Shown here piece after piece: positions 1-29,803 of a stretch of DNA of 29,803 nt (position 1 is its first letter; every line of letters begins with the position of its first letter). Both the position numbers and the translations under genes were made by a program. The DNA lies in IMG/VR virus record IMGVR_UViG_2571042390_000006, positions 1 to 29,803 of that record. One strand, 5' to 3'. Origin of the DNA: a virus. Its lineage: Duplodnaviria > Heunggongvirae > Uroviricota > Caudoviricetes. Under the pieces are notes generated by a model. The model had not been told where the DNA came from. It saw nothing but the letters and a program-made list of their open reading frames with translations, and did no database searches.

Positions 1-1002
1 TTACCCTCTATTGTCAAAAGGGTTCAATTCAACAGCAGCCTCTAAATGACCTGGAGCAAAATGCGCATAACGCATAGTCATTTTTATATCGCTATGCCCC
101 AGTATTTTTTGCAACACAAGAATATTTCCGCCCCGCATCATAAAATGACTGGCAAACGTGTGACGTAGCACATGAGTTAATTGCCCATCAGGAAGCTCGA
201 TCTTCGCTCTCTTAATTGCAGCGTCAAAAGCCTCATAACATGGTGAAAATAGCGCTCCTCGTTTTTTGGGAAGCATAGCCTGCAATTGAGGTGAAATCGG
301 TACAGTGCGGTTCTTCTTTCCTTTAGTTTTAACAAATGTGATTCGACCGGGCAGTACTTGAGATTGCTTTAACCCTTCTGCTTCACTCCACCGAGCACCA
401 GTCGCAAGCCCAATACGGACAACAACCCCCAAATCTTTATTCCGTGACTCATCACACGCAATCAGAAGGCGTTCAATCTCATCTACATACAGAAACGCCA
501 GTTCCTTTTCTTCCTCACGAAACTTGCGAATACCAGTCAGGGGGTTTTCACCAGACCACTCCCCAAGGCGCTTCAGTTCGGCAAAAACAGCATGTAGATA
601 TGACTGCTCGCGATTAACGGTTGCTTCACTAAGTTTTTTCTTCCCCTTGGGATTCCACTCTCCTGATAACCTTCTTTCCCGATAAGTGGCAAACATATTT
701 TTGTCAAACTGAGAAGCAAATGGATCTCCCAGCCTGGAACAAATCGCCTCAAGTTTGACTTTGCGCTCTGCACCAGAGGACAAGGTTTTACCGTACATCT
801 CAAACCAACGAGCAATCAACTCAGAAAGACGAGGACCAGAACCATCTTGAAACTCGTCTCCAACTCTACTATTCATTAAACGGCGCTCATAAGAGAGCGC
901 CTCACTTTTTGTCGCAAACTGTTTACGAATGCGTTTTCCCGATGCCCCGTAGGGATAACATTCGCAAAGCCATTTACCTGATGGAATCTTACGAACCGAC
1001 AT
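1..1002 (-). CDS. int: Phage integrase (tyrosine recombinase)
   Basis: 333-aa ORF with C-terminal catalytic signature HVLRHTFASHFMMRGGNILVLQKILGHSDIKMTMRYAHF (R..HxxR..Y box). Last gene of the leftward lysogenic operon. Confidence 0.93.
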   Translation of the reverse strand: MSVRKIPSGKWLCECYPYGASGKRIRKQFATKSEALSYERRLMNSRVGDEFQDGSGPRLSELIARWFEMYGKTLSSGAERKVKLEAICSRLGDPFASQFDKNMFATYRERRLSGEWNPKGKKKLSEATVNREQSYLHAVFAELKRLGEWSGENPLTGIRKFREEEKELAFLYVDEIERLLIACDESRNKDLGVVVRIGLATGARWSEAEGLKQSQVLPGRITFVKTKGKKNRTVPISPQLQAMLPKKRGALFSPCYEAFDAAIKRAKIELPDGQLTHVLRHTFASHFMMRGGNILVLQKILGHSDIKMTMRYAHFAPGHLEAAVELNPFDNRG

Positions 1003-1007
1003 TTTAG

Positions 1008-1355
1008 TTACTTATCACATAAATCAAATGCAGCCTTAGTGACATCCCCCAGGCTCTTTTTTAACCCTGGGGCGGCATCATTATCTAGCCAAAATGGATT
1101 ATTGTTATCTAACGGTAACGCACCAAATGTTTTACCTTTTATTCGAGCCAAACCTGTAAGTGCATATAACTTATTATCGTCAAAATTCATCACATAAGGA
1201 TTACCATCAAGACACTGTAATTGAACCTCATCAGTATTAAATGGCCATACCCCATTGAAACTCTCACGTTCAATAGTTTTAAAAGGCATTGCGACGGCGG
1301 AAAAAGAAAACATAGATAAAAAAGTAACTAATAGTTGAACCTTTTTTACTTTCAT
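1008..1355 (-). CDS. Small secreted protein of unknown function (signal peptide, two Cys)
   Basis: 115-aa ORF. N-terminus MKVKKVQLLVTFLSMFSFSAVA is a typical Sec signal peptide. Sits 5 nt from the int start codon on the same strand as repressor and int. AT-rich. Confidence 0.6.
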   Translation of the reverse strand: MKVKKVQLLVTFLSMFSFSAVAMPFKTIERESFNGVWPFNTDEVQLQCLDGNPYVMNFDDNKLYALTGLARIKGKTFGALPLDNNNPFWLDNDAAPGLKKSLGDVTKAAFDLCDK

Positions 1356-1384
1356 ATCATTACCTCAATTTAGCTCAAGTAAGA

Positions 1385-2035
1385 TTACAAATTAAAAAAC
1401 GCCCTAGAAATGACACCGCCTACCAAAACCCCTACGCAGATAAAGAATATTATTTCTTTTGGATAAAGTCGGATTAATTCTGAAGCACGAAGTCGGACTT
1501 CTGGTAAGGTCGAACTCTCTGTGTGGCTTGATGCCGATTGTTGCTCTAACCACGACAATGCAGACTGTAACTGAGAACGAGTAAGATCGTTTAAACGTCC
1601 TGTACCGAAATTGATATGGCAATACCGCAGAAGTTTTTGTCGAAGTCCACAGTCTTCACTGTTACGTAGTAATAAACTTACAAGAGCCTTACAGGCATCA
1701 TGATCTTTACATCGCTCAAGCATTGCATGCAGAAAACTCTCCGCTGTTTTATATTGATTTACTGTCATATCATCAATACCAGCTACACCAATCTCCGCAT
1801 GTACTTTTTGCCAAATAATAAACGCTTCAGTATTGCTAGCTTCTGCAATAGCAGCAACCAAGCTATTTAGCTCCTTACGCTGAGCCTTAAGCAAAGGGCG
1901 ATCGTCATCATCATTATTCGAAGGGATTGCGATATTGACGGTATGAGAACCATCATATCGCTCTATCTGAATATTCTTTTCGTGAAAATCACGCCCAGCA
2001 ACGCGATTGTTTGAACCGTTTGAGTTGACGGCCAT
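1385..2035 (-). CDS. Hypothetical protein with C-terminal transmembrane anchor; N-terminus shares a motif with the repressor C-terminus
   Basis: 216-aa ORF with a GGAGG RBS 5 nt upstream. C-terminal hydrophobic stretch EIIFFICVGVLVGGVISRAFF. N-terminal SNNRVAGRDFHE resembles repressor C-terminal GNNRIAGRDYNE. Confidence 0.6.
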   Translation of the reverse strand: MAVNSNGSNNRVAGRDFHEKNIQIERYDGSHTVNIAIPSNNDDDDRPLLKAQRKELNSLVAAIAEASNTEAFIIWQKVHAEIGVAGIDDMTVNQYKTAESFLHAMLERCKDHDACKALVSLLLRNSEDCGLRQKLLRYCHINFGTGRLNDLTRSQLQSALSWLEQQSASSHTESSTLPEVRLRASELIRLYPKEIIFFICVGVLVGGVISRAFFNL

Positions 2036-2050
2036 GTCACCTCCCTACTA

Positions 2051-2455
2051 TCACCTACCCTTAGTTTCGTTATAGTCACGACCAGCGATACGGTTATTAC
2101 CACCAGAAATATTTAACTCACGTCCTGATGGCTGAGTTTCCTTTTCACTGATCGCACCTTTTAAAGCCCCAATCACCGCGTTTTTCACATCTAACGAAGC
2201 TGCTCGAAAGCGAGTAATCAACTCCTGCTCATCATCGTTATAAGTTTCAGGTGAGTGAATTCCCAACACAACATACTGAACATCAAGGCCAAAACGAGAC
2301 AGCGCTGCCAAATACGCAGCATCAGGAAAGCTATCTCCTTTCTCATATCTAAGCTGAGTTAGCTTTTTGACTCCACCAATGTCGCTCATGGCAACTTGAC
2401 TAAGTCCCAATCTTTCCCTTTCCTCACGCAACCGCTGACCAATATCATTTTTCAT
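2051..2455 (-). CDS. XRE-family helix-turn-helix repressor (candidate immunity repressor)
   Basis: HTH region IGQRLREERERLGLSQVAMSDIGGVKKLTQLRYEKG. Divergent from the early operon, in the position of P2 C / 186 CI. I chose the internal ATG (MKNDIGQ, 2453-2455) because the track start at 2530 would leave no room for the divergent early promoter. Confidence 0.7.
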   Translation of the reverse strand: MKNDIGQRLREERERLGLSQVAMSDIGGVKKLTQLRYEKGDSFPDAAYLAALSRFGLDVQYVVLGIHSPETYNDDEQELITRFRAASLDVKNAVIGALKGAISEKETQPSGRELNISGGNNRIAGRDYNETKGR

Positions 2456-2531
2456 ACAAAAAACCTTGACAGGTATCTTTTTTGATACCAAAATGATTTC
2501 ACGAGCTATTAGATGATCACAATATACCACT
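2456..2531. promoter_or_regulatory. Candidate lysis/lysogeny switch region with a dyad operator-like element
   Basis: 76-bp intergenic region between divergent repressor and early operon. Contains TTGACA (about 2466-2471) and the inverted repeat GGTATC-TTTTTT-GATACC (about 2472-2489). Exact promoters not resolved. Confidence 0.4.
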
Positions 2532-2738
2532 ATGAAACAAGTTCTTCACGATACCAGATCACGCATTCCGCGTAACACCGCCACAGGTCCAAGACTGGCA
2601 CTTCGGCTGTCCCTCGAGGAGCGAGCCGTCATTGATGAAATGGCAGCTAAAGAACAACGCTCATCCTCTAACATGGCGCGCATGATCTTCCTTCGCGGCC
2701 TAGAGCTAACCCAGAAAGAACAAAACAAATCTTCCTGA
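2532..2738 (+). CDS. Small putative DNA-binding protein (ribbon-helix-helix-like), first gene of the early operon
   Basis: 68-aa ORF. Segment RLALRLSLEERAVIDEMAAKEQRSSSNMARMIF resembles RHH/MobC-like DNA-binding folds. Assignment is by pattern only. Confidence 0.45.
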   Translation: MKQVLHDTRSRIPRNTATGPRLALRLSLEERAVIDEMAAKEQRSSSNMARMIFLRGLELTQKEQNKSS

Positions 2739-2754: not shown

Positions 2755-2958
2755 ATGTCAGGTATAACCATCAATATCAATGTGAATGCCCCCTATGTAT
2801 CCCTGCAGAAATATGCAGAGATAACAGGTATCCCTCTTAATACATGCAAAAAGATGTTGGCTGACGGTCGAATTATTATCCGCCCCAAACGCGCCAAAAT
2901 GGAAAAGCCTGAAGTAAACCTTGTGGCGATGTTAAAAGACGCTTTGGCTAACAGCTAA
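2755..2958 (+). CDS. Cox-like HTH protein (excisionase / switch regulator candidate)
   Basis: 67-aa ORF. YVSLQKYAEITGIPLNTCKKMLADGRIIIRP parallels the Cox HTH region of P2 as I recall it. Position matches cox. Confidence 0.55.
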   Translation: MSGITININVNAPYVSLQKYAEITGIPLNTCKKMLADGRIIIRPKRAKMEKPEVNLVAMLKDALANS

Positions 2959-3983: not shown

Positions 3984-4075
3984 CAGCTTAAACAAAACAC
4001 CAGATTAAACCCGAAAACCTGAAAACTATCCGCATTCGCGGAGGTATTCGCACACGTAAATAACGGAGATATAAA

Positions 4076-4462
4076 ATGAACGCAAAAGAAAAAAATATTA
4101 TCAATACATTAAAAATAGTGTCAGCAGAGCAAGACAAGCTGTCCAGGGCAGCCCAGAAAGATAATCAACATATGGCAGCGCTTTACGCACTGACCATCGC
4201 AATAGCCGCCTCTGAAGCAGCCAAAGTTATTGAGGAACAGAGCAAAGAAATCGACACTCTTAAAACACAGTCAACAGTTGCAGCCATGAATCCGTCCAGC
4301 ATTGGACGCTGCATTTTATATTCTTGGTTCAGCAATGATGCTGCAATACACCATTATTGCCGAACTGCACGGCAAATACCTGATAACGCCTTACCACACA
4401 AAAGAGTCAGAGCTTCTGACAAATCTCCGCCTGATAGAACGCTCTCAAGCTGTATTCATTGA
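4076..4462 (+). CDS. Hypothetical early protein; 3' end uncertain (possible frameshift into the 4302..4493 frame)
   Basis: GGAG RBS 8 nt upstream. The first 75 residues look protein-like and the C-terminal third is R/S/P-rich and junk-like, while the overlapping frame 4302..4493 looks protein-like. Confidence 0.4.
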   Translation: MNAKEKNIINTLKIVSAEQDKLSRAAQKDNQHMAALYALTIAIAASEAAKVIEEQSKEIDTLKTQSTVAAMNPSSIGRCILYSWFSNDAAIHHYCRTARQIPDNALPHKRVRASDKSPPDRTLSSCIH

Positions 4463-5279: not shown

Positions 5280-5299
5280 GAAACCAGAACATGCACACA

Positions 5300-5562
5300 C
5301 AAAAAAACCGCTTGCCATGCCTCAATCGGTCAGGTTACATTTCCGCTGCAGCTCATAAAACGGGTGCCGGGATTCTCAACCCGATACAGAGCAAAGCGCA
5401 TAACCGCGCAAGCGGTTTTTTTGTGCGCACTGTATTGCCACGTCTTTTTCGCGTCAGAATTATGGCGGGGCGTACGGGGCCGACTTCGGTCGGGCCGGAT
5501 TCTTTGCTCTCCGGTGTTGAGAACCCTGTACGTCTCGCCACCCCGAGATTCTCAACTCTGGA
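5300..5562. other. Structured non-coding region (nested inverted repeats, three TTCTCAAC motifs, UUCG-loop hairpin)
   Basis: No convincing ORF. 9-bp inverted repeat at about 5307-5315 and 5408-5416; about 27-bp imperfect inverted repeat at 5368-5397 and 5497-5526; third direct TTCTCAAC copy near 5548; GGCCGAC-TTCG-GTCGG(G)CC hairpin near 5478-5496. Confidence 0.3.
5403..5422 (+). terminator. Candidate intrinsic terminator
   Basis: ACCGC-GCAA-GCGGT hairpin followed by a run of seven T, about 120 nt after the 4980..5279 stop. The stem is short. The right arm also pairs with AAAAAAACCGCTTGC at about 5301-5315. Confidence 0.4.
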
Positions 5563-5601
5563 TGGTGAGTTATTTCTATCACCGAGCAAAGAGGCCACAC
5601 C

Positions 5602-5832
5602 ATGGCAGACCGCAAACAGCACCGCACTATCGCGGAGCGTCGTCACATCCAGACTGAAATCAACCACAGACTTTCCCGCGCATCACGCGTCGCGCAAATC
5701 ATGCACATCAATATGCTGCATGAGCGCAGCCACGCACTATCAAACATTTATTCCGCCTCTGTTTTCAGCTATCTGGCGGATGATCTGCACGAGCTTCAAC
5801 AGCTCATCCAGCAGCAAAACAAACTCCATTAA
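5602..5832 (+). CDS. Hypothetical protein
   Basis: 76-aa ORF with an AGAGG RBS-like sequence; no motif recognised. Confidence 0.4.
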   Translation: MADRKQHRTIAERRHIQTEINHRLSRASRVAQIMHINMLHERSHALSNIYSASVFSYLADDLHELQQLIQQQNKLH

Positions 5833-5904
5833 TTCCTGTTCCGGGCCTTTCCTGCACCTTGCGGCGGGAGGCCTTCGCACATCTGTAACAAGAGGATTGC
5901 CGCA

Positions 5905-6270
5905 ATGATTCTCGCCAACGACTTTCTTGAATACCTGCTCAACACAGAACGAGATCTTGCCGCTCGCGTGCGTGATCGTTATGACATGTACCTGAAATCC
6001 CTGCCTGTACCGCAGCTCGCTGACGGAAAGATTGTTATTGATGGTCGCTACATGATTGACAGCCACGAGGGAAATTACAGGCTTTACCGCATTGAAGGTG
6101 GCACCCCGTCCGTTATTGGCATTTACCAGCGCCCATCCTCTGCAATCGTCGATGTGATTGCCGACAGCATCCGCATCACACATCGCCATGCCGACACAGA
6201 AGACACCGTGCTGGAAATTCAGCGGCTGGCTACAGTCTGCCGCGACACCCTGAATGGCATGACGAAGTAA
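5905..6270 (+). CDS. Hypothetical protein upstream of A
   Basis: 121-aa ORF ending 6 nt before the A start. Confidence 0.5.
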   Translation: MILANDFLEYLLNTERDLAARVRDRYDMYLKSLPVPQLADGKIVIDGRYMIDSHEGNYRLYRIEGGTPSVIGIYQRPSSAIVDVIADSIRITHRHADTEDTVLEIQRLATVCRDTLNGMTK

Positions 6271-9175: not shown

Positions 9176-10135
9176 ATGAAAATTTGTATCGACGACGGCT
9201 CCACCAACATCAAGCTGGCATGGACTGAGAACGGCGAACGCCGCAACGCCATCAGCCCGAACAGCTTCAAGTCGGAATGGTCTGCGCCGTTCGGTGGCAC
9301 GCAGCCCGCGAACTACATGCTTGATGGCGTGCGCTATGGTTTTGATCCGGTCAGCGATCGCTTTGTCCAGACAACCGACACGCAATACCAGTACAGCGAT
9401 GTGAATGTCATTGCCATTCATCACGCGCTGGTCAAATCAGGCATCACGCCACAGGAGGTGGATGTGGTTGTCACCCTGCCACTGAGCGAGTATTTCGACA
9501 CAAACGCACAGCCGGACATGGCCAACATCAACCGCAAAAAAGCGAACGTTATGCGCCCGGTGGAGTACCAGAACGGCGAAGCATTCACTATCCGTAACGT
9601 ACGGGTTATGCCTGAATCCATTCCGGCTGGCTTTAAGGCACTGGCTGACATGAGTCCGTTTGAATCCCTGCTGATTGTGGATTTAGGCGGAACCACGCTG
9701 GATGTGGCAAAGGTTCAGGGACAACTGGCAGGTATCAGCCAGGTGTTTTGCGATCCACACGTAGGCGTTTCCCTGATGGCCGATGCCGTACTGTCGGTGA
9801 TGGCCACTAACGGTATGCGTACCAGTCACCACATCGCCAATACCATTATCGAACATCGCCATGATGAAGCCTGGCTGCGCCAGCACATCCACAATGACGC
9901 GCATTACGCCAGCCTGATGGCGGTTATTCGTGAAAAGGAAGAAACACTGAAACAACGCGTGATCCGCGCGCTGGCGGGTTTTTCGGGTTACGGGCGGGTG
10001 ATGGTTGTCGGTGGCGGGGCGGAGATTGTGGCACCCGCTATCCGCGAAGCCTGCGGAGTTAATGCGACTTTCATCGCGGACGGGGTGCCACAGTTTGCTC
10101 TGGTTAATGGGCTGTACGCAATGGACAAGGAGTAA
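9176..10135 (+). CDS. parM: ParM/StbA-family actin-like segregation ATPase
   Basis: 319 aa. N-terminus MKICIDDGSTNIKLAW and the motifs VMPESIPAG, DLGGTTLD and VVGGGAE align with plasmid R1 ParM as I recall it. AAGGA RBS. Confidence 0.82.
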   Translation: MKICIDDGSTNIKLAWTENGERRNAISPNSFKSEWSAPFGGTQPANYMLDGVRYGFDPVSDRFVQTTDTQYQYSDVNVIAIHHALVKSGITPQEVDVVVTLPLSEYFDTNAQPDMANINRKKANVMRPVEYQNGEAFTIRNVRVMPESIPAGFKALADMSPFESLLIVDLGGTTLDVAKVQGQLAGISQVFCDPHVGVSLMADAVLSVMATNGMRTSHHIANTIIEHRHDEAWLRQHIHNDAHYASLMAVIREKEETLKQRVIRALAGFSGYGRVMVVGGGAEIVAPAIREACGVNATFIADGVPQFALVNGLYAMDKE

Positions 10136-12782: not shown

Positions 12783-14485
12783 CAGAACTCCATAACCGTG
12801 AAACGCTCGTTTTCTCCTTCGCCGCCAATCGGTTCGTTAATGACAGCAAGCATGGTTGCCCACGCAAGGTCGCCGTGGCTGATCCCCCTCGCTCGGTCCG
12901 TTTCGTAAGTGATAAAGCCGCCCGGTGTTTTCACCTTACGCACGGCGTTAAAGGCCGCGACCAGCTCGCGTTCGGCGCGATCGTATTCCCACCGCCCGGC
13001 ACGCATTATTTGCAGCATTTTCAGTACCAGCGACCGTTTTGATGACAGCGTGAAGGTGTACGGAATAGCAGCAGGGAAAAACCGTTTCACTATCTGATAA
13101 ACAGCCTCCCCGTTCCCGCCCGTCACATCAATGCCGATGTGTTCCACGTTATAGCGACACGTGAACTCTTCAATGACTCTGGCCTGTTCTTCAAACTCCA
13201 GCCCCTGAACGCGTCGCGTCTCCACCGTTCGGAAACGGCCACCAGGAACAGCCGGAGGAACCACCACGGACACAGCACCGCTGTCGCCGTTGCCACTGCT
13301 GCCGTTTGCGTCATACCCAATCCATACCGGACGATTCCCCATCGGGCGGGGAGCAAAAGGTTTCCAGTCTTTCCAGTCGTCGTATCCGTCAACACCGCAG
13401 CCAATCAGGATATTCAGGTTAAATGCCGATTCCCCTTCGCGGACAAACTCACACATATAGAGATTGAGGAACTCGTCTTCGGTGTTTTCATCACGAATTT
13501 CGTCGATATCGGTGTGTTTCCAGCCGTGATTAACCACATCTTCCAGCGTGACAATTTGCCGCCAAGTCCGGTCAGGGCAGATAAGCCCGTTATGCAGCGT
13601 TTTCCAGTCCACAGAAAAACGCTGGCGTTTATGCGAGGCCTTTTTCTCGTTCCAGCGGTCGCCGTTCCAGTAGGCGTACGCCTCGTGCGTTTCGGTGGAT
13701 GGCGTGGAGAAGTAGGTGCGCCGCAGTCCGCTGAGGGTTGCCATAGCGCCAGCCACCTTGCGCAGTTCAGCAAAGCGACTGACCCAGAAAAATTCATCAA
13801 AATAAAAATTGCCCGTATAGGACTGTGCCGACGCAGCAGAAGTGCCGAGAAAATGCAGCTCTGCGCCGTTGGAGAGGATGATTTTATCGCCCCCTTTCAG
13901 CTCCACATCAACTTCAGCCGCGACCTTCTGAATAATGCTTTTAAACTGGAACGCCTGACGACGCGACGCAGACAAAAAAATCTGGTTACGCTGGTAAGGT
14001 TGCGCCACATCGTCACGCAGCGCCATCAGCAGAGCTTCCTGTGCAAAATACCAGGTCGCCCCAATCTGTCGGGATTTCAGGATCATCCTGTTACGTATCC
14101 CGGCTTCCCTGCAAAGTGTCAGGGAGTCAAACCAGCCCCGCTGATGCCACTCCAGCCTGCTGATGATTTTTTCCCGCAGTGCGGCAATCTGTTCCGGCGT
14201 GAAATGATTTTTAAGTTTTTTCGCCCGGCCTTTCTTTCCTGCGGCCATCACATCCGGCTGGCCATCATGCAGCTTTTTAAGCTGCCGGGTCAGCAGGTCT
14301 ATTTCCTTAAAGTCACCGCCTGTTTTATTCTGTTTTTCAGTAAGCTGGATGAGGCGCGCATCGATGGACTGCGTGACACGCTGCACGGGGGGCGTTTCAT
14401 CCCACTGGTCGCGTTTTTTCCACGCATAAATCGTGTTCGGGTTTATTCCCATCAGACGTGATATTTCTGCGGGCGGATACGACAC
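12782..14485 (-). CDS. P: Terminase large (ATPase) subunit, P2 gpP family
   Basis: 567 aa. Size and position match P2 P; sequence is characteristic of the family. The start appears to be GTG at 14483-14485. Confidence 0.88.
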   Translation of the reverse strand: MSYPPAEISRLMGINPNTIYAWKKRDQWDETPPVQRVTQSIDARLIQLTEKQNKTGGDFKEIDLLTRQLKKLHDGQPDVMAAGKKGRAKKLKNHFTPEQIAALREKIISRLEWHQRGWFDSLTLCREAGIRNRMILKSRQIGATWYFAQEALLMALRDDVAQPYQRNQIFLSASRRQAFQFKSIIQKVAAEVDVELKGGDKIILSNGAELHFLGTSAASAQSYTGNFYFDEFFWVSRFAELRKVAGAMATLSGLRRTYFSTPSTETHEAYAYWNGDRWNEKKASHKRQRFSVDWKTLHNGLICPDRTWRQIVTLEDVVNHGWKHTDIDEIRDENTEDEFLNLYMCEFVREGESAFNLNILIGCGVDGYDDWKDWKPFAPRPMGNRPVWIGYDANGSSGNGDSGAVSVVVPPAVPGGRFRTVETRRVQGLEFEEQARVIEEFTCRYNVEHIGIDVTGGNGEAVYQIVKRFFPAAIPYTFTLSSKRSLVLKMLQIMRAGRWEYDRAERELVAAFNAVRKVKTPGGFITYETDRARGISHGDLAWATMLAVINEPIGGEGENERFTVMEF

Positions 14486-15194
14486 GTTTATTTCATACCC
14501 GAAGCTTGATGCCTGGGCGGCTCACAGCGATTTTCAGTCGCGCATCAGCACACAGATTGCCCGGCAGGTGGCGCTTGACCGCATCATGATCGGCTTTAAC
14601 GGCACATCACACGCGGAAAAATCCAATTTCAGCACCAACAAGCTGCTTCAGGACGTTAACGTGGGCTGGCTGGAGCACATCAGAACCGATGCCAGTGAAC
14701 GCGTAATGAATGACGTGACGCTGACTTCCCGCAACATGGACAACACAGTGGCGCACGCGGGTAAGTATGCGAACGCTGATGCACTGGTACAGGACGCGCG
14801 CTCATCCCTGCTGGATGAATGGCACAAGGAAGCAGACGACCTCGTGGTGATTATGGGGCGCAACCTGTTTAACTCGCTGCGTCTGCCCGTGCTGAACAGC
14901 ATCAGCGGCCAGAATCCCAATGCGGAATTACTCGCCGGACAGCTCATCCTGTCATCGCGCACCATTGGTGGGCTGGATGTATTCCTTGCGCCGTTCTTCC
15001 CGGATGCAACGATGCTGATCACCTCATTCAACAACCTGTCAATTTACTGGCAGAGAGGCTCAATGCGTCGCCTGATGAAAGACGAGCCGGAATACAACCG
15101 CATCGCCACCTACCAGTCCATCAATGACGCTTATGTCGTTGAAGACTATGGCAAGTGCGCGATGGTCACAGGCCTGAAGTTCGCCGACAGCTAA
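14486..15194 (+). pseudogene. N: Major capsid protein (P2 gpN family), 5'-truncated fragment
   Basis: Homology to the C-terminal two-thirds of P2-type major capsid protein begins immediately beside the P start codon (YPKLDAWAAHSDFQ...DYGKCAMVTGLKFADS). No scaffold gene and no P/O intergenic region are present. Confidence 0.65.
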
Positions 15195-15239
15195 TCAACT
15201 CACGGCGGGCATCATGCCCGCCTGTAACGGAGAGAAAGA

Positions 15240-16181
15240 ATGATTACCCCTGCACAGCAACACTGGCAGAACGTGATGGCGCAGCGCGCAGGCCGGGCGA
15301 ATGAAGGCGTGGATCACGCCGCACGTACCGCGCATGAAGAGGTGCTGTATCGTCTGCGTCTGGCACAGGCCCGACTTAAGGGCGTACAGGCCAGAAGCGC
15401 CAAAGCCGCCATCAAAAAAGAGTTGTTACCGGACTTTTCCGGCTGGATTGAAGGAACGCTGGAGGCTGACGGCGGGCAGCAAGATGAGGTGATTGCCACG
15501 CTGATGGTGTGGGCGATTGACTGCGGCGATCTTCCGCTGGCATTGCGTATTGGTGCGTATGTGGTCCGTCACAACCTCATCATGCCGGATAACTTTGGCC
15601 GTACTGCTGCCACGGTACTGACCGAAGAAATCTGCAACCCGGTACTGACGCAGGCCGGGACGGATGCCGACGCGGATTTGTCCGCCTTTATCGAACCACT
15701 GGACACACTTTGGGAAATTGTCGCCAACCAGGATATGCCGGACGAAGTGCGCGCCAAATTATGCAAGGCGTGCGCCTTTGCCCGCCGTGGCCTGAGCGAT
15801 GCGGACAGCATGGCCTCATCACTGAAGCTGCTGCGCGAAGCGATGCACCTGAACCCGAACGCAGGTGTGAAACGCGAGATTGCAACCCTTTCCCGCGCCC
15901 TGAAAAAAGCCGATTCCGCAGCCGAACCAGAAGACGCCAGCACACCGCAGGCGCAGGACGAAAGCAGCAAAAGTAAAAAGACAACGCGGAAGCCTGCAAC
16001 ACGAAAAACCACCGCGACGCAGAAGGCGAAGCGCGGTTACACCGACACAAAGGGACCATCAGCGCACTGCGCCGGGCCATTGAGCCGCTGGGATACCTCA
16101 TTCGCGTGTCTGAGTGGTGGGAGTTCGACGGCGAACCCGGAACATTCAAGGTTGATGTTGGCACGCTGGACAGTGGTGTGA
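15240..16181 (+). CDS. M: Terminase small (endonuclease) subunit, P2 gpM family; 3' end uncertain
   Basis: N-terminal 250 aa match P2 M, including the basic tail KKTTRKPATRKTTATQKAKRG. The ORF then runs on as junk-like sequence overlapping the L-like frame. Confidence 0.7.
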   Translation: MITPAQQHWQNVMAQRAGRANEGVDHAARTAHEEVLYRLRLAQARLKGVQARSAKAAIKKELLPDFSGWIEGTLEADGGQQDEVIATLMVWAIDCGDLPLALRIGAYVVRHNLIMPDNFGRTAATVLTEEICNPVLTQAGTDADADLSAFIEPLDTLWEIVANQDMPDEVRAKLCKACAFARRGLSDADSMASSLKLLREAMHLNPNAGVKREIATLSRALKKADSAAEPEDASTPQAQDESSKSKKTTRKPATRKTTATQKAKRGYTDTKGPSAHCAGPLSRWDTSFACLSGGSSTANPEHSRLMLARWTVV

Positions 16182-16339
16182 CCGAGGAAATGTATCTGGA
16201 AATGGAACGGCTGATTGCCGATGCCAAACCCGCAAGTCGCCACCTTATCGGCCTGAACATTATCCAGGACATTCCCGGCTATCTGTATACAGGCGGTGTG
16301 GTCTGTGATGGTGATGTTATTACTGTTTATCCCGGATAA
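16106..16339 (+). CDS. Probable head completion protein fragment (gpL-like), start unresolved
   Basis: The reading frame is open from about 15977 but has no ATG before the GTG at 16106. It ends 10 nt before H. Shorter than P2 L. Confidence 0.35.
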   Translation: MSEWWEFDGEPGTFKVDVGTLDSGVTEEMYLEMERLIADAKPASRHLIGLNIIQDIPGYLYTGGVVCDGDVITVYPG

Positions 16340-16349
16340 GTGAGAAACA

Positions 16350-19007
16350 ATGAGCACGAAATTTAAAACCGCTATCACTACTGCCGGAGCCGCGAAGCTG
16401 GCAGCCGCCACTGTCCCCGGCGGGAAAAAAGTAACTCTGTCTGCAATGGCCGTGGGTGACGGTAATGGCAAATTGCCGGTGCCGGATGCCGGTCAGACGA
16501 AACTGGTGCATGAGGTCTGGCGTCACGCTCTGAATAAAGTCAGCGTGGATAACAAGAATAAAAACTATATCGTGGCTGAACTGGTTGTACCGCCAGAAGT
16601 GGGCGGCTTCTGGATGCGTGAGCTGGGTCTGTATGACGATGCCGGAACACTGATTGCGGTCGCTAACATGGCGGAAAGCTATAAGCCTGAACTCGCTGAA
16701 GGCTCCGGGCGCGCGCAGACCTGCCGCATGGTTATTACTGTCAGCAACGTAGCGTCCGTTGAGCTGAGTATTGATGCCAGCACAGTGATGGCGACGCAGG
16801 ATTACGTCGATGACAAAATCGCAGAGCATGAGCAATCCCGCCGCCATCCTGACGCCACGCTGACAGAAAAAGGTTTTACTCAGTTAAGTAGCGCAACAAA
16901 CAGCACCAGTGAAGAGCTGGCGGCAACGCCAAAGGCAGTAAAAGCAGCCTATGACAATGCTGAAAAACGTATGCAGAAAGACCAGAACGGTGACGATATT
17001 CCAGATAAGGGCGCTTTTCTGGACAATGTTGGCGTTACCAGCCTGACGTTTATGAAAAACAATGGCGAAATGCCGCTTGATGCTGACTTGAATACATTTG
17101 GTCCCGTTAAGGCTTATCTTGGCGTCTGGTCTAAAGCTACATCCACTAACGCGACGGCTGCTAAAAATTTCCCTGAAGACGGTGCAGTCGGTGTACTGGA
17201 GGTATTCAATGGCGGTAATTTTGCAGGAATGCAGCGTTACACCACCAGAACAGGCAATGTTTATATGCGCAACCTTTCTGGCACATGGAATGGTTCAGAC
17301 GGTCCGTGGAGTTACTGGCGTCAGGTTCAGTCTGCAACACGCCCCCTGAGCACAACCATTGACCTGAACACGCTCGGAGGCGCAGAGCATCTTGGTTTAT
17401 GGCGAAACAGTAGTGGCTCAATCGCTTCATTTGACCGCAACTATCCGGAAGAAGGAAGTTATGGTCAGGGACTCCTTGAAGTTCTTGAAGGTGGTGGTTA
17501 CTCGCGAACGCAGCGTTACACGACCCGCCGTGGAAATGTTTATGTTCGCTGTCTTTCGGCCTCGTGGGATGCAGAGAACCCACAATGGGAGCCGTGGTCA
17601 AGAGTGGGCTACCAGTCAGAAAGCCGTTATTACGACGGTGATTTGAATGATGTAACCTCACCAGGTATTTACAGCGTTACAGGTAAAGCGACCAATGGTC
17701 CAATACTGGACGGAAACGGCGTGACTGTACTCGGTATTCTGGAAGTGCTGAGGCGCTTTGATGGCGTTAACGTATGGCAACGTTATACAACCGCCGGAAC
17801 AGGTGCAACCCTTAAAGGTCGCACGTTTGAGCGCGTTTATACCGGCAGCTCGTGGAGCGAATGGCGGGAAGTTTACACATCTTATTCACTTCCCCTGAAT
17901 CTGGGTATCGGTGGCGCAGTGGCAAAACTCACCAGCCTGGACTGGCAGACCTACGATTTTGTGCCGGGCAGTCTGATAACCGTTCGGCTTGATAACATGA
18001 CCAATATTCCCGACGGTATGGACTGGGGCGTCATTGATGGCAACCTGATAAACATCGCAGTTGGTCCGAGTGATGATTCTGGTACGGGGCGCTCAATGCA
18101 TGTATGGCGCAGCACTGTAAGTAAAGCGAATTACCGCTTTTTTATGGTTCGCATTTCAGGAAATCCGGGAAGCCGCACGATTACGACAAGACGTGTGCCA
18201 ATTATCGACGAAGCTCAGACATGGGCGGCGAAACAGACATTCAGCGGTGGTCTTTCAGGCGAACTATCCGGCAATGCTGCTACAGCAACAAAGCTGAAAA
18301 CGGCAAGGACAATTAACGGCGTAAAATTTGACGGCTCGGCAAATATTGAAGCGTTTCCGCCAGGTGTTCCGCTGCCGTGGCCATCAGATACTGTGCCGTC
18401 TGGTTACGCCCTGATGCAGGGACAGACTTTTGACAAATCTGCATACCCGAAACTTGCAGCCGCTTATCCGTCAGGCGTGATCCCGGATATGCGTGGCTGG
18501 ACAATCAAGGGCAAACCCGCCAGTGGTCGGGACGTATTGTCTCTGGAACAGGATGGCATTAAATCGCACACCCACAGCGCCAGCGCATCCAATACGGATT
18601 TGGGTACGAAAACCACATCTTCGTTTGATTACGGTACTAAATCAACGAATAACACAGGTGCACATACCCACAATGTATCTGGTACTGCAAATAGTGCTGG
18701 CGCACATACTCATACCGTTCCATTAAGGAGACCAAACAGTGGCGGTATGAATTTCGACTGGCTGGATGGTGCATCAAGTGGCACGGTGGTGGGGAATGGA
18801 ACTGTGCCTTCTTCTGGCGCACATACCCACTCAGTATCAGGTACCGCTACAAGTGCTGGGGCACATGCACACACTGTTGGTATTGGCGCTCATACGCACT
18901 CTGTTGCGATTGGTTCACATGGACATACCATCACCGTTAACGCTGCTGGTAACGCGGAAAACACCGTTAAAAACATCGCATTTAATTATATTGTGAGGCT
19001 TGCATAA
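16350..19007 (+). CDS. H: Tail fiber protein (P2 gpH family) with divergent repeat-rich receptor-binding region
   Basis: N-terminus [25 protein letters not shown]...EVWRHALNK...[29 protein letters not shown] matches the P2 H N-terminus. Three internal QRYTT..GNVY..LS..W repeats and C-terminal GAHTHxV repeats. Confidence 0.88.
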
Positions 19008-28800: not shown

Positions 28801-28887
28801 TGGTACCCGGAGCGGGACTTGAACCCGCACAGCGCGAACGCCGAGGGATTTTAAATCCCTTGTGTCTACCGATTCCACCATCCGGGC
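28801..28887 (-). tRNA. leuZ: tRNA-Leu (anticodon UAA)
   Basis: Reverse complement reads GCCCGGATGGTGGAATCGGTAGACACAAGGGATTTAAAATCCCTCGGCG...GGGTACCA: cloverleaf, long variable arm, anticodon loop UUUAAAA, 3' CCA. Confidence 0.95.
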
Positions 28888-28899
28888 TCGGGAAGAAAG

Positions 28900-28973
28900 T
28901 GGAGGCGCGTTCCGGAGTCGAACCGGACTAGACGGATTTGCAATCCGCTACATAACCGCTTTGTTAACGCGCC
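28900..28973 (-). tRNA. cysT: tRNA-Cys (anticodon GCA)
   Basis: Reverse complement reads GGCGCGTTAACAAAGCGGTTATGTAGCGGATTGCAAATCCGTCTAGTCCGGTTCGACTCCGGAACGCGCCTCCA. Confidence 0.95.
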
Positions 28974-29027
28974 AAATTCTTCAGGCCTTTCAGCCAGACA
29001 TCCGCTTGAGGCCGATGTCTTTTAAAC

Positions 29028-29103
<76 letters not shown>

Positions 29104-29254
29104 ATTCATCAAGCAATCAGTTAATCACTTGATTTTATTATCGTCTGGCAATCAGTGCCGCCGTTCGATGCGTTGCATTCTACTTACCTGGCGCGATGAG
29201 TCAACGATATTTTTCACCACTTTTGATCGTTTGCTGAAAATTACGCCGAAACGA

Positions 29255-29803
29255 TCACTGATCAAGCAAATCTGCACGCGCAGCGCTCAAATATTGCAAC
29301 ATTGACCACAGAGTCAGTACCGCAGCCACAAAGAAAAGTGCAATACCGGCGTACTCAACCCAAATGTTCGGACGCCACAGCAGCCAGGCCAACGCCACCA
29401 TCTGGGCAGTGGTTTTCACTTTCCCAATCCAGGAGACAGCCACGCTACTGCGTTTACCCAACTCCGCCATCCATTCGCGTAGCGCAGAAATAATAATTTC
29501 ACGGGCGATCATCGTTGCCGCCGGTAGGGTCACCCACCAGCTGTGATAATGCTCGGTTACCAGCACCATGGCGATAGCCACGAGAACTTTATCTGCTACA
29601 GGGTCAAGGAAAGCACCAAACCGGGTACTCTGGTTCCAGCGGCGTGCCAGAAAACCATCGAACCAGTCAGTCACCGCCGCGACGCAGAAAATGAGCGCGG
29701 CGGCAAACGGCGACCAGGTGACAGGCAGATAAAAGACCAATACAAAGAATGGGATAAGGATGACACGGAACAGTGTAAGCAACGTAGGGATATTAAATTG
29801 CAT
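29255..29803 (-). CDS. pgsA: CDP-diacylglycerol--glycerol-3-phosphate 3-phosphatidyltransferase
   Basis: 182-aa polytopic membrane protein with the CDP-alcohol phosphotransferase motif (DWFDG...FLDPVADK). Conserved synteny pgsA-glyW-cysT-leuZ. Confidence 0.93.

Follow-up and report, generated by a model that had tools for sequence, protein, structure and literature searches.

Introduction

In the bacterial BASS/Bell-NLR systems and in E. coli Bab/Agp, a motif of ~25 residues is found both at the C-terminus of the upstream protein and at the N-terminus of the downstream protein. These motifs are rich in G, N, Q, V, and I and poor in K, P, and L, the two genes are collinear and often overlap, and an amyloid passes the signal from receptor to effector. 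Here we analyze a 29,803-nucleotide stretch of viral DNA (IMG/VR record IMGVR_UViG_2571042390_000006, hereafter the window), a P88-like prophage (Xuanwuvirus, Peduoviridae) with 96.9% identity over 3.4 kb to Escherichia phage 520873. In its immunity region an XRE/helix-turn-helix (HTH) protein, whose position and family point to the immunity repressor, is encoded next to a 216-residue membrane-anchored protein (hereafter the partner), and the C-terminal tail of the former and the N-terminal head of the latter carry the same peptide motif. The motif differs by lineage, and alignment scores across lineages show the tail of a repressor to match the head of the partner encoded with it. We propose, with moderate confidence, that repressor and partner form a dedicated two-gene immunity module in which tail and head pair directly via a homotypic β-strand motif.

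The closest known signature is that of BASS1–10 and Bab/Agp (BASS11, found in E. coli prophage defense islands), which share with the present pair the placement of the motif in adjacent genes, much of the composition (rich in G, N, Q, and V and poor in L, P, and K, though not enriched in I), disorder in the monomer, and the existence of several sequence families. The proteins themselves are different. Here the C-terminal motif belongs to an HTH repressor and not to a Bell/HeLo-type pore former, and the N-terminal motif to a small membrane-anchored Flk_N protein and not to an NLR/STAND or TPR receptor. The pair is found in unicellular Proteobacteria, within a phage immunity region, and its E. 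coli variant is shorter than the ~25 residues typical of BASS. No NACHT, NB-ARC, TPR, or Bell domain was found in the pair in Pfam, NCBIfam, or PADLOC, and because NLR/STAND receptor and Bell/HeLo effector domains are absent we do not class the module among the BASS systems; the domains are new, though the gene-pair signature matches that of amyloid-signaling pairs. The fungal HET-S/NWD2 and RHIM-type systems likewise carry the same motif on the receptor N-terminus and the effector C-terminus, with collinear similarity, and the sequence NVQIG of a Ralstonia pair described below resembles, over five residues, the G-φ-Q-φ-G/IQIG core of the RHIM type. Unlike in HET-S/NWD2, there is no pseudo-repeat on the C-terminal-motif side of the window pair, and the globular domains are without homology.

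The partner has a further relative in Flk (Fluke/RflH), which regulates the flagellum's type III secretion switch in Salmonella and E. coli. Flk is cytoplasmic with a C-terminal anchor (PMC13344023), and both its Flk_N domain and its anchor recur in the partner. Flk is chromosomal, ~330 residues long, and has a long low-complexity linker and no motif, whereas the partner (216 versus 333 residues) is prophage-borne, lies beside a repressor, and carries the N-terminal motif. It matches the NCBIfam Flk model (NF007987) with E = 8.6e-16 and 58 bits against a cutoff of 353, residues 37–166 covering model positions 20–149 of 339. By its domain content the partner is thus related to Flk and is not a Flk equivalog.

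Two further kinds of regulator bear comparison. In anti-sigma systems of the RseA/sigma-E type and in two-piece ToxR-like regulators, a cytoplasm-facing membrane protein is likewise encoded beside its presumed soluble transcription-factor target, and some partners from other lineages are RseA-like in adding a small periplasmic Cys-containing domain after the transmembrane (TM) segment. Here, unlike in those systems, the target is a phage repressor, mirrored terminal peptides take the place of a folded anti-sigma domain, and there is no homology. The anti-repressors RstC (acting on RstR in CTXφ/RS1), Ant, and Tum are phage proteins that act on their own repressor without cleavage, as we propose for the partner. 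RstC, in work by Davis and colleagues from 2002, is said to act by aggregating RstR. Unlike the partner, whose gene lies in the repressor's own apparent operon, known anti-repressors are soluble, made only on induction from a separate promoter, and have no motif in common with the repressor. Full-text searches, from which most subscription journals were missing, found no description of a repressor/partner motif pair.

Repressor and partner carry the same motif

At the window locus the repressor tail motif GGNNRIAGRDYNE and the partner head motif GSNNRVAGRDFHE are identical at 9 of 13 residues; the repressor ends with ...LNISGGNNRIAGRDYNETKGR and the partner begins with MAVNSNGSNNRVAGRDFHEKN... 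When both proteins were shuffled 20,000 times, no 13-mer exceeded 7 identities, and a search of the window with a degenerate DNA pattern of the motif gave these two copies alone. Among the 13 codons, 4 are identical, 5 differ synonymously, and 4 encode replacements (27 of 39 nucleotides identical). The number of synonymous codons is exactly that given in a first-pass annotation of this DNA, which had claimed that the peptide is conserved rather than recently duplicated at the DNA level. The 5 synonymous differences imply conservation at the peptide level, and the claim is borne out by the retention of the motif in both protein families across genera.

In enterobacterial genera the motif is indeed conserved in homologous repressors as well as in their partners. 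The tail reads INVSGxGNR[VI]AGRD[YF]xExKK in repressors from Klebsiella, Erwinia, Yersinia, Salmonella, and Serratia, and the enterobacterial partners have an extended conserved head, VNSxGxxNRxAGRD[FY]xE (residues 3–19), in which N10, R11, G14, D16, and E19 are invariant in 36 homologues of 58–96% overall identity. An AlphaFold model of the repressor, based on the family alignment (mean predicted local distance difference test score (pLDDT) 78), consists of an HTH domain (residues 1–66), two helices (residues 74–106), and a tail (residues 108–134) that is disordered in the monomer, with pLDDT below 50. In the corresponding model of the partner (mean pLDDT 75), residues 1–41 are almost wholly below 50 and also disordered. 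Despite these low values, the tail and head segments rank with the best-conserved parts of the two proteins. Motifs that are conserved yet unstructured on their own are typical of peptides that fold on binding.

The pair recurs across unrelated prophages

Through the conserved HTH region of the repressor alignment we fetched 160 loci, out of ~330 genome and ~480 viral matching loci, and scored the last 40 residues of the repressor against the first 45 of the next open reading frame (ORF), calling a locus mirrored at a score of at least 33. By this measure 99 of the 160 loci are mirrored, with a TM-like partner in 93 of the 99 and overlapping stop and start codons in 25. The hosts include Enterobacterales, Gilliamella, Pseudomonas, Aeromonas, and Burkholderia, among others. 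Chromosomal Pseudomonas HTH homologues beside a response-regulator gene have neither the tail motif nor a partner.

P2-like prophages of Klebsiella, other E. coli, and Erwinia all retain the gene order repressor, Flk_N protein, (variable gene), integrase. More distant repressor homologues, from Pectobacterium, Gilliamella, and Pseudomonas, belong to Mu-like prophages that have rve transposase and holin/SLT genes nearby, and the gene immediately after the repressor again encodes an Flk_N or related membrane protein. The presence of the pair in both P2-like (integrase) and Mu-like (rve transposase) elements implies that it moves as a unit between unrelated phage backbones. The 216-residue protein had been called cargo in the first-pass annotation, together with the smaller protein encoded between it and the integrase. 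That label fails for the 216-residue gene, which is a constant companion of the repressor family in two prophage types, and holds for the smaller gene, which occupies a variable slot.

Across lineages, repressor tails match the heads of their cognate partners

Lineage-specific versions of the motif are seen, for example, in Pectobacterium (tail QIFNGDISGQFAGNQIIN, head QEFNGTAQGQFSSRDIIN), Jeongeupia (tail TVDYGNAQIGQASAGDIVN, head TVSFGGAQIDQAAAGDINN), Pseudomonas (tail QQFNGPVGSVTSGDVVN, head QQFNGAVEQVAAGDIKN), and the viral contig L161 (tail QVFHGAVSGGVAARDIIN, head QEFQGNVDGGVAGRDIVN). For 43 non-redundant pairs the mean score is 40.7 in cognate and 24.0 in non-cognate combinations (z = 11.4, 0 of 20,000 permutations), and the preference is also seen in the 32 non-redundant pairs that bear the motif (z = 10.1, 0 of 50,000 permutations) and in 22 pairs outside the NRxAGRD class (z = 9.6); as the sequences are related by descent, these permutation figures overstate independence and are not true probabilities. 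A link between the repressor and the downstream protein, which the first-pass annotation had suggested from the window alone, is thereby supported across lineages. The same annotation had also considered a shared protease site or degron. This idea is weakened, since related hosts carry several motif variants: Pseudomonas and Gilliamella have several each, and every variant is mirrored only by its own partner.

The mean score is 48.6 for forward and 20.4 for reversed heads, no reversed head reaches the threshold, and 0.65% of shuffled pairs score 33 or above. A compositional artefact as the source of the mirroring is ruled out by these controls. Across 30 pairs, 162 of 291 identical residues use different codons, which shows that the copies have not been homogenized by gene conversion; gene conversion and recent duplication are both ruled out by the codon differences. 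The mirrored segments are enriched in G (2.4x), N (3.6x), V (1.5x), and Q (1.35x) and depleted in L (0.08x), P (0.44x), and K (0.65x), and isoleucine is not enriched. Outside the NRxAGRD class, in the Mu-like variants, the mirrored stretch is typically ~17–25 residues long, and many repressor tails there carry a second strand-like element (e.g. QVFHGSVGQVVEGSITNEAGVSFNFG).

A separate case is the Ralstonia P2-like phage YO077_2 (locus L178, 2399..3935), in which the repressor and Flk_N-like genes are convergent. This pair is still mirrored (QVINGGSNNVQIGSV versus QSITDGNGNVQIGKV, with a score of 42 compared to 19 for the reversed head), which implies that the constraint acts on the proteins and not on translational coupling or DNA. 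The Ralstonia tail ...GGSNNVQIGSVKTGRRK and head ...DGNGNVQIGKV have a common motif with the core NVQIG. An ORF encoding a 117-residue Zn-ribbon/TM protein lies between the two genes.

Architecture of the two proteins

The partner matches PHROG 5825 over its full length (E = 4e-103) and has a precomputed Pfam match to Flk_N (PF27202). Its Flk_N-like domain is modeled as helices 50–67, 71–82, 92–125, 129–143, and 153–172 with pLDDT 85–93. A C-terminal membrane anchor, as predicted in the first-pass annotation, is supported by the modeled terminal helix and by a Kyte-Doolittle 17-residue maximum of 2.28 at residue 194, a value taken from the near-identical L097 copy. Partners of other lineages comprise the motif, a conserved helix of the form (R/G)xL(T/V)xx(E/Q)RxxLNxLV, a helical or coiled-coil region, and a TM segment; an alternative build is a small protein with two hydrophobic segments. 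Foldseek gave no significant fold match to the PDB for the partner, the best being SaPI2 Stl (E = 0.8, 66 columns), on which we do not rely, and no enzyme fold in the PDB matched the all-helical model. The identities zf-P11 and ELYS, suggested by first-pass Pfam matches, are below cutoff and were discarded as noise.

A profile search of 1.84 billion representatives returned only 137 Flk_N relatives. Phage-type relatives (~190–330 residues) begin with a head-type motif, and true Flk proteins (MQPxSGPG..., 330–430 residues) have the Flk_N domain without it. Repeating the homologue search with a diverse Flk_N alignment recovered almost only the close enterobacterial set. The Flk_N gene is matched by only 5 of 50,697 phage records. 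In the reference genome of phage 520873 (NC_049344, 1039..3065) the integrase is annotated as two fragments, and the Flk_N gene has no annotation and is matched piecewise, in three parts. Being unannotated and fragmented in this way, the gene is effectively invisible in the phage database.

The repressor matches HTH_31 and HTH_3 in Pfam, has only weak, HTH-level matches in PADLOC, and matches the NCBIfam RstR model weakly (E = 4e-6, below cutoff). Some XRE repressors are coupled to a protease (ImmR/ImmA, DdrO/IrrE, COG2856); Pfam gave no match to a peptidase family in the module, and the HExxH motif is absent from the 216-residue sequence.

The YebY-like gene occupies an accessory slot

The 115-residue protein has two Cys and an N-terminal hydrophobic, signal-like leader, MKVKKVQLLVTFLSMFSFSAVA, in agreement with the signal peptide and Cys pair described in the first-pass annotation. 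It matches DUF2511/YebY in Pfam (E = 2.3e-6) and the YebY structure 7n0j in the PDB (E = 0.0027). Between the partner gene and the integrase, other prophages encode a 288-residue protein (Klebsiella), a DUF8087 protein (other E. coli), or a 198-residue protein (Erwinia), as seen at loci L002, L006, and L010, and in Erwinia the YebY gene is located between repressor and partner. This integrase-adjacent slot forms a small hotspot for accessory genes, and the gene at 1008..1355 is variable accessory cargo, the only gene of the three to behave in this way. Variable presence, a feature of superinfection-exclusion morons, is accordingly found for this gene and not for the 216-residue gene, and the first-pass label of a cargo or exclusion module fits the YebY-like gene only. 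No PADLOC defense model matches either downstream protein, and superinfection exclusion or abortive infection by the YebY-like protein is possible.

Proposed direct pairing and its alternatives

From these patterns we infer a physical pairing, its geometry, a direction of control, and a biological output. On the reading that we favor, which accounts for the observations most simply, the disordered repressor tail and the disordered partner head, carrying the same lineage-specific, β-prone motif, would bind each other directly and collinearly, strand on strand. The DNA-binding repressor would thereby be coupled to a membrane-anchored, cytoplasm-facing protein, and the partner would most likely regulate the repressor from the membrane, as a sensor/anti-repressor or as a co-factor. 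Maintenance or induction of the prophage would then be tied to an inner-membrane cue, and the orthogonal motif variants would prevent cross-talk between co-resident prophages. We favor an action of the partner on the repressor because the repressor is in the canonical immunity position, because some partners carry periplasmic domains suited to sensing, and because orthogonal variants make sense as insulation between co-resident prophages. As the repressors have no domain beyond the HTH, the two helices, and the tail, the pairing would supply a route of control.

Several observations weigh against direct pairing as formulated here, beyond the relatedness of the sequences mentioned above. Inside the enterobacterial NRxAGRD class, to which the window belongs, a cognate preference is not detectable (z = 1.1). 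The motif is too uniform in this class, and the cross-lineage result is therefore extrapolated to the window locus. The mirrored motif of the window is short (13–19 residues) and contains charged residues. A clear TM segment is lacking in 6 of the 99 mirrored partners and also in the Ralstonia Flk_N-like partner. Finally, if repressor and partner are present in similar amounts in the lysogen, constitutive sequestration would abolish repression, so that the pairing would have to be conditional or non-inhibitory, and the sequence shows no evident switch that would make it conditional.

A special case of direct pairing would be an amyloid-type switch. Here a membrane cue would cluster the partner, the clustered heads would adopt a cross-β fold and template repressor tails into an inactive polymer, and the repressor would leave its operators. 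Lysogeny would then give way to lytic growth in an irreversible, prion-like switch, with the lineage-specific variants as orthogonal 'immunity codes' for the seeding step. Much of the evidence is compatible with such a switch: the gene-pair signature of BASS and Bab/Agp, in which collinear, often overlapping genes encode the motif C-terminally in the upstream product and N-terminally in the downstream one; the similar bias toward G, N, V, and Q and away from L, P, and K; the mirrored length and second strand-like element outside the NRxAGRD class; the disorder of both segments in the monomer models; the resemblance of the Ralstonia NVQIG to the RHIM/BASS3 core; and the collinear, identity-preserving similarity, which parallel in-register stacking predicts. 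Signaling of this sort is also established in a prophage-borne system of E. coli. However, the motif of the E. coli type is short and has charged residues (R, R, D, E), isoleucine shows no enrichment, neither protein has the NLR/STAND receptor or Bell/HeLo effector domains, and an ordinary two- or four-stranded β-sheet contact accounts for the same sequence data. We regard the amyloid form as unlikely. Control could also run in the opposite direction, as in toxin–antitoxin (TA) or abortive-infection modules, if the partner were a latent toxin that self-assembles via its head and is capped by the repressor tail, so that loss or titration of the repressor leads to membrane damage. The layout resembles that of type II pairs, in which an HTH protein whose C-terminal tail is disordered is encoded just ahead of a tightly coupled or overlapping gene; the partners are membrane proteins, and the block is kept at >99% identity in hundreds of E. 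coli genomes, including the apparently defective window prophage. The disordered tail and the gene coupling are, however, the TA features that are present: no recognizable toxin or defense family was detected for the partner in Pfam, NCBIfam, or PADLOC, the position of the HTH protein is exactly that of the immunity repressor in both phage types, a classical antitoxin tail is unlike its toxin, and the homologous Flk is a non-toxic regulator. A toxin role is in our view improbable.

A third factor (a protease, chaperone, or adaptor) that recognizes both motifs would allow repressor and partner to be handled together without contacting each other. Disordered terminal peptides are typical degrons, the repressor tail ends in basic residues, and matching of the identity type would also be expected if both peptides fit one pocket. 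But the motif is internal to the termini and not at the extreme end, the module has no third motif copy and no protease gene, and several variants coexist in a single host genus (Pseudomonas, Gilliamella), each finding its match in its own partner alone, which fits pair-specific recognition better than a conserved host factor. We give this explanation little probability. The least probable account, to which we give hardly any weight, is that the partner is unrelated lysogenic-conversion cargo, for example for superinfection exclusion, and that the similarity is a functionless relic of a duplication at the gene junction. Consistent with it, the YebY-like neighbor is variable and the interval between repressor and integrase belongs to a minor accessory/defense region in P2-like phages (PMC13586616). 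It is already contradicted by the cognate-matching and codon results, that is, by maintenance at the amino-acid level with diverged codons and parallel change in both proteins, and further by the co-occurrence of the partner with the repressor family across phage types and by mirroring that is kept even when the genes are convergent.

P2-like and Mu-like phages are classic examples of prophages whose repressors are not known to be inactivated through RecA-stimulated self-cleavage, and the decision to exit lysogeny is poorly understood in many of them. A conserved, co-evolving link between repressor and membrane protein would offer a concrete, testable route for the control of lysogeny. The pair also occurs in Klebsiella, Salmonella, Yersinia, Pseudomonas, Burkholderia, and bee-gut Gilliamella. 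The pattern is widespread, statistically strong, and unannotated, and it provides a function-level lead for the uncharacterized phage branch of the Flk_N family. Should the pairing be amyloid-like, it would be the first such signaling to act on a transcription factor rather than a cell-death effector, and would carry amyloid signaling beyond NLR/cell-death pairs into the transcriptional control of phages that infect unicellular Proteobacteria. As specific peptide-pairing tags, the orthogonal variants might also make up a natural toolkit.

Gene layout and other features of the prophage

The features of the immunity region are listed in Table 1. As laid out in the first-pass annotation, two genes lie between repressor and integrase and all four are on the minus strand, arranged head-to-tail. 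This 1.5-kb block is present in 520 of 5,426 complete E. coli genomes (~10%), many O157:H7 strains among them, mostly at an identity of at least 99%.

Table 1 Features of the repressor–integrase block and the adjoining switch region (window coordinates)
Feature	Position	Strand	Basis or remark
Tyrosine integrase, last gene of the lysogenic-strand block	1..1002	-	Pfam Int_N and Phage_integrase
YebY/DUF2511-like protein, 115 residues, predicted secreted	1008..1355	-	Pfam PF10709, PDB 7n0j, PHROG 2950
Partner protein, 216 residues	1385..2035	-	PHROG 5825, Pfam PF27202 Flk_N, AlphaFold
Partner, predicted C-terminal transmembrane anchor, residues 192–215	1391..1462	-	Kyte-Doolittle and AlphaFold helix 192–215
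Partner, Flk_N-like helical domain, residues ~47–172	1520..1897	-	Starts with conserved helix RPLxKAQRKELNSLV
Partner, head motif GSNNRVAGRDFHE, residues 7–19	1979..2017	-	Sequence alignment
Repressor/partner junction	2036..2053	-	Sequence: stop TGA, in-frame TAG TAG, Shine-Dalgarno GGAGGT (2039..2044), GAC, ATG
Immunity-type XRE/HTH repressor, 134 residues, ATG at 2455	2051..2455	-	ORF, Pfam HTH_31/HTH_3, PHROG repressor families
Repressor, tail motif GGNNRIAGRDYNE, residues 118–130	2066..2104	-	Followed by basic end TKGR
Divergent switch region, repressor versus early genes	2456..2531	.	Sigma-70-like site on + strand, 2466..2494
Arc-like repressor, early lytic-strand gene	2532..2738	+	PHROG matches (3431/575 for the Arc-/Cox-like pair); phage 520873 annotation
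Cox-like excisionase/repressor, early lytic-strand gene	2755..2958	+	PHROG matches (3431/575 for the pair); phage 520873 annotation

In P2-type phages the immunity repressor occupies the position divergent from the early genes. The HTH gene of the window is likewise divergent from the Arc-like and Cox-like early genes; the P2-type switch layout is described in PMC3448106. A simple scan called no minus-strand promoter in the switch region (2456..2531). As no terminator-like site was found on the minus strand from 2455 to 1, co-transcription from repressor to integrase is plausible. In the window the repressor and partner genes share one reading frame, and a read-through fusion of the two is unlikely because of the three consecutive in-frame stops between them. 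In other lineages, including many Mu-like relatives, the two genes overlap by ATGA (gap -4). The O157:H7 copy (L177) has a 45-residue ORF at 4043..4180, upstream of the repressor and on its strand, which takes the place of the opposite-strand Arc-like gene of the window. The switch region is therefore mosaic among near-identical repressor blocks.

Further along the window, Rfam matches at gathering level were obtained for isrK (5348..5422, + strand) and for a C4 antisense RNA (5458..5545, + strand), a type of RNA that controls anti-repressor synthesis in P1/P7. Both are overlapped by a 205-residue ORF (5291..5908), and PHROG 'transcriptional regulator' families match the N-terminal part of its product. 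Together, the two RNA matches and the regulator-like ORF suggest that this P2-like prophage may have a second, RNA-based layer of immunity. Downstream of the GpA replication gene lies a ParM/StbA-type actin-like segregation gene (9176..10135, + strand), which would not be expected as cargo in a P2-like phage that integrates. Of the P2 capsid profile, only positions 100–324 are covered by the capsid ORF (14433..15194), no scaffold gene was seen in this part of the window (14433..19007), and the small-terminase ORF (15240..16181) is followed directly by the tail-fiber gene (16350..19007). The P2 head-completion, lysis, and baseplate block thus appears to be missing, and the prophage looks defective. 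The right end of the window (28801..29803) contains tRNA-Leu(taa), tRNA-Cys, tRNA-Gly, and pgsA, and in the O157:H7 copy yecA and tyrP lie just past the integrase. These flanks place the element between yecA and the leuZ tRNA cluster.

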